A stretch of DNA of 64,000 nt from a virus, in IMG/VR virus record IMGVR_UViG_3300036770_003016; one strand, given 5' to 3'. The position numbers and the translations under genes are program-made. Position 1 is the first letter of the stretch, and each line of letters starts with the position of its first letter. Below the pieces are notes generated by a model, which ran no database searches, was not told where the DNA came from, and saw only the letters and a program-made list of their open reading frames with translations. This document shows, piece after piece, positions 20,639 through 45,991 of the stretch.

Positions 20639-21343
20639 TTAGTCCCACAGATTTCTGTAGTACTTACCAAACAGTCTTGTACCGTTATTGATTCGTTCAT
20701 TGTACTTTTCGTAACCTTCACGATCAAACTCTGCGGTGTGATTTGGTCCCCTCTCAAAAGTATAAAGAGTTGGTTTACCATTCTCATCCCACTCGCAAGG
20801 TACAGACTTCATATCATGTACACCAGTATGGAATTGTGCATCATAGTCATCGTTACATAACTGTTCAAATGCCCAAATCATTTCATCAAGAACCCATTCC
20901 CATCGTGCATGAATATCACAATGACTTTCTTTTGGTTCGTCTTGCTTATAGAAATCAAAAGTTTCTTGTGCATCATATTCTTCATGTGTGATGCAACGAA
21001 GATGTTCTGGTACATCCTCTAAGTCTACCATAGGAGAACCATGCTTAGTCTTTTTCAACTGCTTGAGCATTGGCAGGATGATTGGAGACAATGTTGTATC
21101 CATGTTCCAAGTGTCGTACTTGTCAATCTTGACATACTCAATTCTTGGATGAACAAAATCAAGAAACTTCTGAAACCCAACACAAACAGGATTCAGAAGA
21201 TTGACAAACTTCTCGTACTTGTTTTTTGGATCGTCATCAAGATTATAGATGATGTCTTTGTCTTTTTCCCAAAAACAAATTTTGGTCAAAATTGTATATG
21301 GAGACAACCAATGATTACGATATTTGCTGATGTATACTTTCAC
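20639..21343 (-). CDS. Conserved phage hypothetical protein
   Basis: IDKYDTWNMD.TL..II.PMLKQL; G..LFGKYY..LWD. Confidence 0.7.
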   Translation of the reverse strand: MKVYISKYRNHWLSPYTILTKICFWEKDKDIIYNLDDDPKNKYEKFVNLLNPVCVGFQKFLDFVHPRIEYVKIDKYDTWNMDTTLSPIILPMLKQLKKTKHGSPMVDLEDVPEHLRCITHEEYDAQETFDFYKQDEPKESHCDIHARWEWVLDEMIWAFEQLCNDDYDAQFHTGVHDMKSVPCEWDENGKPTLYTFERGPNHTAEFDREGYEKYNERINNGTRLFGKYYRNLWD

Positions 21344-21364
21344 AATGTTTTCCCATAAAAAAAT

Positions 21365-21698
21365 AAGTGCCGACTGATTGGGTGATAAGGTACAGTCGGC
21401 GAAACCTCAGCTCAGCATGCCTTAGGCAGCTAAAGCGAAACGCTCATCGTTTGCGTTTATTTTATTTACTTTTTACGACTCTCTGTGTCGGATCGTCCAT
21501 CTTTCTACTCTTTGCCCTGTCGAAACCAGGTCAGGCCCATTAGGAAGCATACTAAATCTGCACTTTTTCAGTCGGGGCTATCTGCTATTATGCAGCCTAC
21601 CGGCAGTCCTTGACCGATCTTCATAGTATGCTTTCTGGTGGACCTGGAGGGAATCGAACCCTCGTCCAGAACACCTTTCAATTAACTTCATACGATCA
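21365..21698 (-). ncRNA. ssrA: Circularly permuted (two-piece) tmRNA, tag ANDERFALAA
   Basis: T-arm GAGGG-TTCGATT-CCCTC plus CAGGTCC-ACCA (ends 21636) precedes the 5' acceptor strand GGGCCTG-ACCTGGTTTCGAC (starts 21538); tag ORF 21454-21422; G3:U70 pair; outer ends approximate. Confidence 0.93.
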
Positions 21699-21730
21699 TA
21701 TTACTACTATAACAGAAACTATTTATTTTG

Positions 21731-22048
21731 TCAAGCAGGTTTACCGTTATTTGCCGGTTTAATTTCTTCGCCTGAACTGATAATACAGTATGTTTTGTCG
21801 CCAGGAAAATATTCTACAAGAGTCCAAGATTTAGTCTCAAAATTAATATAAAGAGTAGTGTGAATCTTCATTGGTTGACTAGTAGTAACACTTTCTCTTA
21901 TTGTTGCCATTTGAAATGCTGGTACTTCTTTGTATACTCTAAGCATTTCTCTCATCTGTTCTTCATCACCACAATCGATTGGGATTTGATAGTTTTGAGA
22001 AAATGCAGCCAAAGGAAACATCATTAAAGCTGCGATTAGTGATTTCAT
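21731..22048 (-). CDS. Hypothetical exported protein
   Basis: Signal-peptide-like N-terminus. Confidence 0.6.
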   Translation of the reverse strand: MKSLIAALMMFPLAAFSQNYQIPIDCGDEEQMREMLRVYKEVPAFQMATIRESVTTSQPMKIHTTLYINFETKSWTLVEYFPGDKTYCIISSGEEIKPANNGKPA

Positions 22049-42160: not shown

Positions 42161-42469
42161 TTAATCCCAAGGTGGATAACCGCCTTGAATACAAATCATT
42201 TTCATCGGACCAGAATAATCTCTCCATTCAATTACTTTACCATTCTTATCAAGAGGCCTTAGATCAGGTAGCGCAAATGTCGTTCTACCATCACCGCCAT
42301 ACTTTGTACCAATAATGGAAAAGAGTGCTTCGTTTCCTTTTACTTGCATGATTTGACCACTACAAGGTGCCCAAGTACGAACACCTCTAGTTCCAGCAAA
42401 CTCTGTGATTGATCCGAGCATATCACCTTCTACTGACATGCCAAGTTTTTGTAACATTTTCTTAATCAT
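42161..42469 (-). CDS. Stand-alone tail collar domain protein
   Basis: G.I..FAG, W..C.GQ, ALFSIIGT.YGGDGRTTFALPDLR. Confidence 0.85.
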   Translation of the reverse strand: MIKKMLQKLGMSVEGDMLGSITEFAGTRGVRTWAPCSGQIMQVKGNEALFSIIGTKYGGDGRTTFALPDLRPLDKNGKVIEWRDYSGPMKMICIQGGYPPWD

Positions 42470-42478
42470 ATTTTCTCC

Positions 42479-42946
42479 TTAAGCAGCTAAACTTTTGTAA
42501 CGATCTGCAGCGTATGATGCCGCAAACGCTCTTGGTTTTACCATAGGAATTACATTACAAGTTCCACGAATATAACCAATTGCTTCATTGATCACGCAAT
42601 TTGAACCATGCATTTCACTTGGGTTGATATCAAGGTGGACTTCTACATCACGACCTTCCAGAACATCAGCCAACTTTAAATACATTTCAGATACCTTGTA
42701 TACTTCATTCATCAAACGGTATCTCGGACGATCTTCTTTTTGGTCATAGTCTCTTTCACGAACAACTTCACCAAAAAGTTTGCAACCGTGTTTTCCATCT
42801 TTGTGAACAACTATAGCAATTATATAGTCAGCATGCCACACTTCATTCACTCTTAATCTTTCAGAATCACATCCAAGATAAATTTTTGTTTCTGGCGATT
42901 GTCTTGAGATGTAATCTTTCACTTCTTGTAAATTTATCTTGAACAT
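42479..42946 (-). CDS. RNase H-like YkuK family protein
   Basis: IYLGCDS, RLMNEV, VHLDINP, AASYAAD. Confidence 0.8.
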   Translation of the reverse strand: MFKINLQEVKDYISRQSPETKIYLGCDSERLRVNEVWHADYIIAIVVHKDGKHGCKLFGEVVRERDYDQKEDRPRYRLMNEVYKVSEMYLKLADVLEGRDVEVHLDINPSEMHGSNCVINEAIGYIRGTCNVIPMVKPRAFAASYAADRYKSLAA

Positions 42947-44238: not shown

Positions 44239-44314
44239 TGGTGGAGAGTATCGGGTTCGAACCGATGACCTCCTGCTTGCAAAGCAGGCGTTCTCCCAAC
44301 TGAACTAACTCCCC
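44239..44314 (-). tRNA. tRNA-Ala(TGC)
   Basis: Loop TTTGCAA, G3:U70. Confidence 0.92.
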
Positions 44315-44892
44315 ATATTGAAACACACTATGCCACGCTCTGAACCTGGACTCTTAGTAATGTGTTCGAATATGGTGTTGCTTGTTCCCGTCCGTCGGGC
44401 CAATGTGTCGGGCTTTATTGCTCTCTACCTATTCAGCCATTCCCATCGTCGAGAGTCAATGGGAAACATCTTGACACACCATCTAACTTAGATTACTTTG
44501 CCATTAGGCGTTTCATCTACTAGCAGTCAGCAAACCATATTGAAGCACACTGACAGTATCGAAACTGCCCACACCGCCGAAAGACGATGCTAGGTCCACT
44601 CCCAAGGCCGGCGCCATCTAGCCTTAGTGTGCTTCAATATGGTTGCTGGTTACGACTCCAGCACAATCGTATCGTCATTGTCGCTCGAATCACGCCTGTG
44701 TCTTCGTCAAAGGCTCGCCGCCTTTATACACGCTTCAGGTATTCGTGTTCTGGGATCAGCCCGAGGACTTTTCGGTCCCCACTTACTCCCATATTCAAGC
44801 ACACTCGTTGTAGACTTTCTGTTAGTATCCCTTACGGGTCCCCGCTGGCAGCCCCAATGGCTGGGCCGGGCGACTAAGAATGTGCTTGAATA

Positions 44893-44978
44893 TGGTGGGC
44901 TTCGTTGGAATCGAACCAACGCTTTCTCTTTTCGATTGCTCTACTCAGAGTCGTGCCCCCAGCAAACACCAGAAGCCC
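44893..44978 (-). ncRNA. tRNA-like RNA with aberrant anticodon arm
   Basis: Acceptor GGGCTTC/GAAGCCC-ACCA, T-arm GTTGG-TTCGATT-CCAAC; no 7-nt anticodon loop. Confidence 0.7.
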
Positions 44979-45071
44979 AAATAAACTTTACCATATTGAA
45001 GCGCACTTAGACTACTACCCTACTCGAGCATAGCCTTTCAGAGCTTCACCCAAATGCACTTCAGTATGGTA

Positions 45072-45185: not shown

Positions 45186-45280
45186 CTACTACCATATTGA
45201 AACACACTGGTCGAAGCAGATACGGAAGACACCCGCTGCTGTTTCCGATGCCTAGTCGGACTCGTCAATGCGCTTCAATA

Positions 45281-45368
45281 TGGTGGGTGGTGATGGTAAC
45301 GCTCCACGAGGCAACTTCCGATCTTATTATGCCGACGGTTTTACAGACCGCTGACCGGGGCACCACCC
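45281..45368 (-). tRNA. Atypical tRNA-Tyr(GTA) lacking D-arm
   Basis: Acceptor GGGTGGT/ACCACCC-ACCA; anticodon arm GCGGT-CTGTAAA-ACCGT; long variable region. Confidence 0.7.
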
Positions 45369-45733: not shown

Positions 45734-45825
45734 TGGTGGAAGCGGTGAGATTCGAACTCACGGGCCACTTTCATGACCGACAGTTTTCAAGACTGTTGCA
45801 ATAAACCGGACTCTGCCACACTTCC
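45734..45825 (-). tRNA. tRNA-Ser(TGA)
   Basis: Loop CTTGAAA, long variable arm. Confidence 0.9.
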
Positions 45826-45896
45826 ATATGGAAACACATTGCCAAGTAGAGCCATGGTATCTTGTGCGGGAGCAACCCCTACAATGTGCTTTCATA

Positions 45897-45991
45897 TGGT
45901 CCTTGGACTAGGATTCGAACCTAGATCATCCCCTCATCTAGAGGCATCGCCGAGGTATAAGCTCGGAGTTTTACCATTAAACTATCCAAGG
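45897..45991 (-). tRNA. tRNA with TAT anticodon (Ile-UAU) and long variable arm
   Basis: CCGAG-CTTATAC-CTCGG; 95 nt; CCA. Confidence 0.8.

Follow-up and report, generated by a model that had tools for sequence, protein, structure and literature searches.

A stem common to the spacer of a permuted phage tmRNA gene and to cassettes of a phage tRNA array

Background

Circularly permuted genes for transfer-messenger RNA (tmRNA) yield a two-piece RNA, the pieces of which are separated in the precursor by an intervening segment (termed here the linker). Beta-type genes of this kind (Rfam family RF01850) occur in Rhodocyclales-type bacteria; permuted tmRNAs of aquatic phages have also been published (PMC9004378); and an intact transfer RNA (tRNA) gene, for tRNA-Ala, has been described inside the intervening sequence of a permuted tmRNA, in a single case that its authors call unique (PMC11915505). 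The subject of this article is the linker of a beta-type permuted tmRNA gene in the IMG/VR virus record IMGVR_UViG_3300036770_003016, of which a stretch of 64,000 nucleotides (nt), referred to below as the window, was analysed; the phage is T4-like. This linker is closed by a stem that resembles the stems of six inverted-repeat cassettes lying inside an array of 25 tRNA genes, about 23 kb away on the same strand.

Several described systems resemble this arrangement in part. The linker of the Rhodocyclales-type genes agrees with that of the window in gene type, in the tag ANDERFALAA, in having a hairpin that extends from the CCA position to position -2 in the same register, and in the core AAG..CAU/GUG..CUU with its G.U pairs. 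It differs in being bare (23-48 nt), in occurring as a single copy and in having CCC or CCU in place of CCA; the window, for its part, has an extra base pair, an encoded CCA, a cargo of 69 nt and a stem that is repeated six times in a tRNA operon. RNase III processing stalks are exemplified by the stems of pre-16S and pre-23S ribosomal RNA and by early sites of phage T7 such as R1.1. Like these stalks, the phage stems form a long duplex by the flanks of a unit that would be freed from a polycistronic stable-RNA precursor; unlike them, the phage duplex encloses a spacer cargo and abuts CCA and G(+1), the stem of the linker is only 10-12 base pairs (bp) long, the stem sequence is conserved beyond the known need of RNase III, and the stems are known here from sequence. 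The tRNA gene cluster of phage T4 holds the stable RNAs C and D (species 1 and 2)--that is, small stable RNAs other than tRNAs that are co-transcribed and co-processed with phage tRNAs, which is the likeness to the present case; to our knowledge, T4 has neither a conserved clamp stem nor swappable slots nor a tmRNA. The promoter-early/stem-loop (PeSL) elements, which are mobile regulatory cassettes of T4-type phages (PMC2839356, PMC4122927), resemble the present cassettes in having short conserved flanking motifs at which variable modules come, go and are swapped. They flank protein genes as promoter and terminator, whereas the present stems lie inside stable-RNA operons and are under RNA-level selection. 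Finally, the published tRNA-Ala case shares with the window a functional RNA lodged in the excised spacer of a permuted tmRNA; neither a shared stem family nor a link to tRNA arrays is described there (PMC11915505).

A full-text literature search, the reach of which stopped short of the primary papers on two-piece tmRNA, returned nothing on the conserved hairpin, on the reuse of this hairpin in tRNA arrays or on the cargo RNA. New here are the recognition of the array stem as the hairpin of bacterial beta-type tmRNA, a pairing register that differs between linker and array stems, a test of strand asymmetry, and a covarying pseudoknot common to tmRNA and array slots. The spacer of two-piece tmRNA, hitherto treated as disposable, emerges as a conserved structured slot, which is common to bacterial tmRNA precursors (where it is empty), to phage tmRNA genes (where it holds small RNAs or, in other phages, peptide genes) and to phage tRNA operons. 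This points to a common, as yet unstudied processing or recognition element for stable-RNA precursors, and to a simple route by which phages could express and exchange small RNAs; it also bears on how permuted tmRNA genes arose. The 69-nt pseudoknot is one concrete new RNA family, and the cultured phages BUDD and Marzo make the stem testable.

Linker and array stems

The tmRNA gene scores 143 bits against RF01850 (beta_tmRNA; gathering score 84) and 133.6 bits against RF04321 (tmRNA_permuted), and ARAGORN calls it as a permuted tmRNA with the tag ANDERFALAA, a tag that is also found in Rhodocyclales-type bacteria. The linker lies between the encoded CCA end of the acceptor piece and the first base of the coding piece (G(+1), position 21538; the coordinates of other features are given in Table 1). 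Its arms, GAAAGCATACTA and TAGTATGCTTCC, form 10 perfect pairs, plus one A.C mismatch and one G-C pair--that is, a stem of 10-12 bp, which encloses 69 nt with a G+C content of 49%, compared with 36% for the window. An original prediction, made from the letters of the window alone, held that this stem has the motif and the geometry of six cassettes in the tRNA array. All six cassettes hold up as real: they have arms of 18-23 nt (of the type CCATATTGAAGCACACT / AGTGTGCTTCAATATGG), loops of 27-74 nt, stems of 18-19 bp and fold z-scores of -2.9 to -6.5.

The whole window was searched for the degenerate complementary arm pair AARCRYAYT / ARTRYGYTT, with the arms at most 150 nt apart, and matches turned out to be confined to the tmRNA linker and the cassettes of the array. 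In second-order Markov copies, simulated from the window with the array removed (n = 300), such arm pairs number 0.10 on average, and in none of these copies (0/300) does a pair have CCA and TGG beside it. These figures exclude a chance likeness between the linker and array stems, and the predicted resemblance stands. Moreover, the core of the linker (AAGCATACT/AGTATGCTT) is one compensated pair (C-G to U-A) apart from the core of cassette 5 (AAGCACACT/AGTGTGCTT), and the linker has both the complementary arms and the core AARYRCAYY / RRTRYRYTT by which the cassette family is recognized.

Two details of the prediction hold in part. The exact consensus AAGCAYACT is present in the linker and in three of the twelve array arms (both arms of cassette 5 and the 3' arm of cassette 4), but the other arms depart from it by 1-3 changes, mostly compensated transitions. 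Similarly, as regards the CCA..TGG geometry, the core lies 5 nt from TGG in linker and array alike, but CCA lies 2 nt from the core in the linker and 5 nt from it in the array, so that the two kinds of stem pair the CCA end with different downstream positions. The array stems run from CCA of the upstream RNA into the next RNA, where U(-1)G(+1)G(+2) is the partner of CCA (CCAUAU/AUAUGG). The linker lacks this array-type pairing: there the CCA end lies opposite positions -4 to -2, and U(-1) stays free. In other words, the linker has the cassette motif, but the register of a tmRNA.

Bacterial beta-type hairpins

A scan of bacteria, based upon one genome per species, yielded 42 beta-type permuted tmRNA genes (L122-L241) from Azonexus, Dechloromonas, Thauera, Methyloversatilis, Accumulibacter, Propionivibrio and other uncultured betaproteobacteria, with tags that are the same as that of the window or nearly so. 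Every one of the 42 linkers is a bare hairpin of 23-48 nt, of the form CC(C/U)-AAGNNCAU...GUGNNYUU-(G/A)G-N-UGGG, in which G.U pairs are conserved. An alignment of 26 of these linkers has 94% of its cells paired, with compensatory changes at 7 of 12 pairs, as compared with at most 59% pairing in slid controls. One bacterial linker (L237) has the arms AAGCGCATT/AGTGTGTTT, with three G.U pairs, and these are the arms of array cassette 2 of the window. Arm profiles built only from the bacterial linkers place the array cassettes at ranks 1-4 and 6 over the whole window, the scores of cassettes 2, 4 and 3 (Table 1) exceeding the maximum of 24.1 bits that was reached in 40 simulations.

A covariance model of the bacterial hairpin, when run against five Rhodocyclales-type genomes, matches the tmRNA linker only, plus one match at E 0.8 (among the best 150 candidates per genome); hence the bacterial hairpin is a single-copy feature of the tmRNA precursor rather than a general signal behind tRNA genes. 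From such comparisons the stem appears to be an old feature of beta-type tmRNA, not a phage cassette that caused the permutation.

A further observation concerns the acceptor end, at which the 42 bacterial genes encode CCC or CCU (CCG and CCA once each). Because the third base pairs into the linker hairpin and CCA is almost never encoded, the terminal A must be added after processing.

Linkers of other phage tmRNAs

IMG/VR was scanned for the T-arm and acceptor end of tmRNA, followed by ARAGORN, which gave 64 loci with permuted tmRNAs; after removal of duplicates and of a few non-tmRNA matches, about 40 distinct phage tmRNA linkers were resolved. Those of 28-138 nt are all closed by a terminal stem except one (L011, 88 nt), and the stems begin directly after CCA and end just 5' of (U)GAU-GGG. 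Pairing was then scored by an alignment-free register test, in which position i, counted from the base after CCA, is matched with position -(5+i), counted from G(+1). Over the first 11 positions of this fixed register, 86% are paired in 22 distinct phage linkers, with several pair types per position, whereas controls reach at most 58% (slid) and 68% (shuffled); the corresponding figure for positions 1-11 of the bacterial linkers is 79%. In the linker of the window, 11 of the first 12 register positions pair, the other being the A.C mismatch. The alignment with phage and betaproteobacterial linkers that the original prediction had proposed thus finds the stem in 42 of 42 bacterial linkers and a fixed register in 22 phage linkers, and the single shared signal that it had postulated is supported, on the level of comparison, by these two sets and by the top ranking of the array cassettes on the bacterial profiles.

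An arm pair of the array type occurs in 7 of 22 phage linkers and 6 of 25 bacterial linkers, and in none of 9400 shuffles; phage linkers that have the array core include L029 (AAGCACATT/AATGTGTTT) and L103 (AAGCATATT/AGTGTGCTT). The array motif itself is thus present in a part of the homologous linkers; a few are stemless (see below). The linker of an unrelated phage (L344) repeats the 9+9 nt core of the window's linker and encloses another insert; the closest relatives of the window's tmRNA, with flanks about 70-77% identical, have wholly different inserts. The exact 17-nt array arm is present in more than 120 viral contigs, and at least three tRNAs were found in 103 of the 120 that were fetched; four permuted tmRNAs lie among these arm-selected stretches, and the motif is present in all three of their linkers that were resolvable. 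Two cultured phages have the stem as well, namely Xanthomonas phage BUDD, with a 127-nt linker and the arms AACACACT/AGTGTGTT, and Stenotrophomonas phage Marzo (a Menderavirus), with a 57-nt linker and the same stem.

Other properties of these loci may be noted in passing. The permuted tmRNA of Marzo (70422-71686; L481) lies within a run of tRNAs, with Pro and Leu before it and Thr after it, and the tmRNA and tRNAs probably form one precursor, because the annotated features overlap. Some phage permuted tmRNAs have stemless linkers of 4-21 nt (L005, L030 and L041, which are beta-type by Rfam, and L003 and L042, which are alpha-type). In the linkers L022, L051/L083/L101, L073, L096, L017 and L044 there is a Shine-Dalgarno sequence in the 5' arm, followed by an ATG and an open reading frame of 21-41 codons; the encoded peptides are mostly hydrophobic, and the stop codon is a UGA or UAA immediately before G(+1). 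One linker of 237 nt (L040) consists of two stem-closed cassettes in tandem, with a short element ending in CCACCA between them, and another of 116 nt (L082) has T-loop-like GGTTCAAnTCC hairpins.

The cargo RNA

When the 69-nt insert was compared by BLAST with 183 cassette inserts of phage loci, array cassettes from two other phages matched it collinearly. A retrieval pattern was built from two conserved blocks (a loose form, which gave mostly chance hits among the matches listed, was tightened thereafter) and identified 20 IMG/VR loci. At three of the 20 the cargo lies in a tmRNA linker, namely in the contig of the nearest relative (L480) and in the L373/L472 lineage, the tmRNA of which is a beta_tmRNA by Rfam. 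The window and one further locus (L476) have the same linker context as L480. With these, the cargo is known from five loci in the tmRNA slot, with two distinct contexts and two phage lineages, and from 15 loci in array slots. The latter are tRNA arrays, with 2-24 tRNAs per fetched stretch, from at least nine other phage lineages; there the cargo immediately follows tRNA-Ile, tRNA-Leu or tRNA-Tyr, or immediately precedes tRNA-Gly. The arms around this one cargo family vary by compensatory changes, their sequence not being conserved. Because the same cargo occupies both tmRNA linkers and array slots, the tmRNA spacer amounts to a seventh cassette slot.

Besides the outer stem, the proposed cargo fold has three inner helices and one pseudoknot helix; in the pseudoknot helix, CCAA/UUGG takes the place of CUGC/GCAG. 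Over 10 distinct sequences 99.6% of cells pair, with 15 of 23 pairs compensatory, as against at most 42% in slid controls. The single-stranded blocks GUCAAGGAC and GAAAAAGU are invariant, the retrieval pattern having required both. Judged by its conservation and covariation, the cargo is a conserved, pseudoknotted, uncatalogued RNA. The idea that the excised linker is a seventh small RNA is likewise upheld as far as conservation goes, given that a covarying, pseudoknotted RNA is found also in array slots of other phages.

A search of positions 21500-21680 against Rfam at a relaxed threshold returned the tmRNA models and chance matches (E>0.3), and no family for the cargo; the seven matches of the cargo pattern in bacterial genomes are all due to chance and lack the arms. 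A comparison of the linker region and the array with phage GenBank records matched the tRNA-like domain only, and BLAST of the six array inserts of the window against about 45 tmRNA linkers gave nothing significant. A peptide gene was considered and rejected: the 18-codon ATG frame in the cargo has no ribosome-binding site, and half of the family lacks the ATG, so the cargo does not encode a peptide.

Selection on the transcript and a proposed processing route

Whether DNA or RNA is under selection can be judged from the mismatches that the stems tolerate. For this purpose 86 distinct array stems were anchored on the strand-symmetric sequence CCATA...TATGG and oriented by the tRNA strand; their positions without Watson-Crick pairing comprise 126 G.U and 23 A.C. 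This excess of G.U over A.C implies that selection acts on the transcript.

With moderate confidence, we take the intervening segment of the tmRNA to be a further slot in a system of stem-clamped RNA cassettes, the clamp probably being excised by RNA-processing enzymes. The reading builds on a stem family that spans bacteria, phage tmRNA genes and phage tRNA operons, that keeps a fixed register to CCA and G(+1), that covaries together with its cargo and that shares its slots between the two kinds of locus. Every cleavage step, and a function of the cargo's own, is put forward as a proposal. The bare hairpin that follows the CCA position in bacteria would be the ancestor of the stem; aquatic T4-like phages would have kept this hairpin in the tmRNA gene, multiplied it between the genes of tRNA operons and loaded its loop with cargo. 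A slot would be transcribed inside a strongly expressed stable-RNA precursor, where, through the stem, the CCA end would be paired to the leader of the RNA that follows; this pairing would isolate the fold of the cargo and hold back RNase P. A double-strand-specific or structure-specific endonuclease--candidates being host RNase III or an RNase H-like protein encoded in the array--would cut the stem, after which RNase P would cut between U(-1) and G(+1), and 3' exonucleases would trim to CCA. The products would be two tmRNA pieces (or two tRNAs) and a free, stem-capped cargo RNA.

The order of these steps is suggested by the properties of RNase P, which prefers U(-1)/G(+1) and for which proximal pairing between leader and RCCA is an anti-determinant that slows it strongly (PMC10731613). 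The preferred site U(-1)/G(+1) is conserved at the linker. Since leader-RCCA pairing slows the enzyme, the stem should delay RNase P until it is opened or cut, so that an endonuclease is argued to act first, with RNase P and 3' trimming to follow. Host RNase III is the obvious candidate for the array stems of 18-19 bp, and a less obvious one for the linker stem. The other candidate, as a nuclease that processes tRNAs or cassettes, is an RNase H-like protein of 155 residues (PF04308, the YkuK/DUF458 family), which is encoded within the array at 42479-42946 (minus strand). Homologues with 57-79% identity occur in 33 of 120 arm-selected loci, compared with 4 of 120 tmRNA-selected and 1 of 109 unrelated viral loci, and in all 33 arm-selected loci having one it lies within about 80 nt of a tRNA gene, although this association may reflect shared ancestry only.

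Objections and alternative explanations

Several observations weigh against regarding the linker as one more slot of a stem-clamped cassette system. The pairing registers of the linker and array stems lie 3 nt apart. RNase III substrates have about two turns of duplex, for which the linker stem, at 10-12 bp, is short unless stacked on the acceptor stem (it could indeed stack on that stem, which has 7 bp). Beta-type phage tmRNAs (so classified by Rfam) with unstructured linkers of 4-12 nt occur (L005, L030 and L041), so that tmRNA maturation as such can do without the stem. The arms of the window linker score 13.1 bits on the bacterial profile (consensus AAGNNCAUU / AGUGNNYUU), which is within noise, so that the linkage to bacteria runs via the array cassettes and other phage linkers. 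In a search of the window, the covariance model of the bacterial hairpin matched neither the linker nor the cassettes at E<10; its matches there are at chance level, with the core replaced by local ends, loop length and base register being the likely reasons, and arm profiles were used instead. Lastly, the cargo alignment comprises two main clades, and many of the covariation counts consequently go back to few events.

Among other explanations of the likeness, chance can practically be dismissed: that the window linker falls within noise on the bacterial arm profile would agree with it, but the simulations described above, the recurrence of the same 9+9 nt core in the linker of an unrelated phage, and a cargo common to linker and array slots all speak against it. 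It is conceivable, if unlikely, that the arms are recombination or mobility sites at the DNA level, belonging to a small mobile element (PeSL-like or a miniature inverted-repeat transposable element), in which case the likeness would record the movement of cassettes and the RNA stem would have no role. The same cargo does occur in different slots of different phages, close tmRNA relatives do have completely different cargo, the exact 17-nt arm is widespread among viral contigs (>120), and the shuffling of modules at conserved flanking motifs is known from T4-type phages (PMC2839356, PMC4122927). Yet mobility sites would account neither for the strong strand asymmetry (126 G.U and 23 A.C on the tRNA strand) nor for arms that differ compensatorily around one cargo family, nor for a fixed register to CCA and G(+1), nor for a hairpin that is bare and single-copy in bacteria. 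The two readings are compatible, moreover, and recombination in the arms may well move the cargo while the stem works in the RNA.

Two further explanations give the hairpin another role. It is distinctly unlikely that the stem is mainly a folding insulator, which keeps the cargo off the acceptor stems and calls for no specific enzyme, its removal being left to RNase P and general exonucleases. The natural linkers of related phages that lack a stem presumably mature, and the long phage linkers (28-138 nt) are all stem-closed except L011, as an insulator would lead one to expect; but the conservation of the stem sequence AAG..CAY/RUG..CUU, including its G.U pairs, from bacteria to phages would go unexplained, and a stable stem set directly on CCA should block 3' exonucleases. 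Slightly less room still is left for the view that the hairpin is a relic or weak form of an intrinsic terminator after CCA, which acts on transcription (through pausing, or through the ratio of the two pieces) rather than on processing. Standard tmRNA genes with a CCA-AAG trailer have terminator hairpins in which the A-rich 5' side pairs with the U tract, and a relic fits the tandem-duplication model as summarised in PMC3978253. Neither the linker stem, on the 3' side of which the sequence reads CCUAAUGGG, nor the array stems are followed by a U run, however; a scan of 21250-21850 found no terminator-like site; and the coding piece and at least 20 downstream tRNAs need read-through of the stems. 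The linker stem was thus rejected as an intrinsic terminator, for want of a U run, and a terminator relic may explain the origin of the stem, not its present use.

Origin of the permutation

According to the published model, permuted tmRNA genes originated by tandem duplication followed by loss of the outer halves (PMC3978253). On this model, the linker is the former spacer between the gene copies. Ordinary tmRNA genes with CCA-AAG trailers have terminator hairpins of the layout CCA-AAG...CUU and, since the layout is shared, the beta-type hairpin could descend from a terminator. The original prediction had offered another route, in which a tRNA-spacer cassette became the linker and so explained the permutation. 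This part of it is not supported: bacteria without arrays have the bare hairpin, once per genome, so that the idea of an array cassette turned linker is not needed. That phages copied the tmRNA hairpin into their arrays is the simpler, though tentative, reading. A tree of 60 tmRNA sequences places the bacteria in one shallow clade (support 0.74) among far more divergent phage sequences; its rooting is weak, and the spread may be explained by faster evolution of the phage tmRNA sequences.

A bolder combination may be mentioned, which we regard as distinctly improbable: the stems would be recognized by a dedicated nuclease, the PF04308 protein, which would free small RNAs and peptide messages, as a swappable library, from stable-RNA precursors; and the beta-type permuted tmRNA would itself go back to such a phage array, where a cassette stem came to split a tmRNA gene, with Rhodocyclales-type bacteria capturing it later.

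Features of the window

Table 1. Positions of the tmRNA gene, its parts and the array cassettes within the window
Feature	Position	Strand	Evidence or remark
Beta-type tmRNA gene, circularly permuted (two-piece), whole precursor	21340..21748	minus	Rfam and ARAGORN
Sigma-70-type promoter of the tmRNA gene: TTGACA, 17 nt, TATAGT, TG before -10	21706..21734	minus	
CCA end encoded at the acceptor piece	21636..21638	minus	
Linker (intervening segment), 97 nt, from the base after CCA to U(-1)	21539..21635	minus	extracted between CCA and GGGCCTG; fold
Linker stem, 5' arm GAAAGCATACTA	21624..21635	minus	
Cargo RNA, 69 nt: three nested helices and a pseudoknot helix	21555..21623	minus	homologues, covariation
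Linker stem, 3' arm TAGTATGCTTCC	21543..21554	minus	
Tag frame ANDERFALAA and stop, within the coding piece	21422..21454	minus	ARAGORN and Rfam
Array cassette 1, tRNA-Ile(tat) to tRNA-Ser(tga)	45824..45899	minus	z -2.9
Array cassette 2, arms AAGCGCATT/AGTGTGTTT	45191..45284	minus	z -5.6; bacterial profile 29.2 bits, top of window
Array cassette 3	44989..45071	minus	z -5.0; bacterial profile 25.3 bits
Array cassette 4	44789..44895	minus	z -5.5; bacterial profile 26.4 bits
Array cassette 5, arms AAGCACACT/AGTGTGCTT	44533..44644	minus	z -6.5; also ranked by bacterial profile
Array cassette 6, immediately 5' of tRNA-Ala	44313..44375	minus	z -3.8

The promoter of the tmRNA gene is near consensus, with 11 of 12 matches, and in the alignment it falls on the promoter section of Rfam's beta_tmRNA model. 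Beside the RNase H-like gene, and likewise inside the tRNA array, lies a gene (42161-42469, minus strand) for a protein of 102 amino acids with a phage tail-collar domain (PF07484). The element at 44896-44978 (minus strand), which separates cassettes 3 and 4, scores 31.9 bits as tRNA in the relaxed Rfam search and is not called by ARAGORN; it has a long 5' leader behind the cassette stem.

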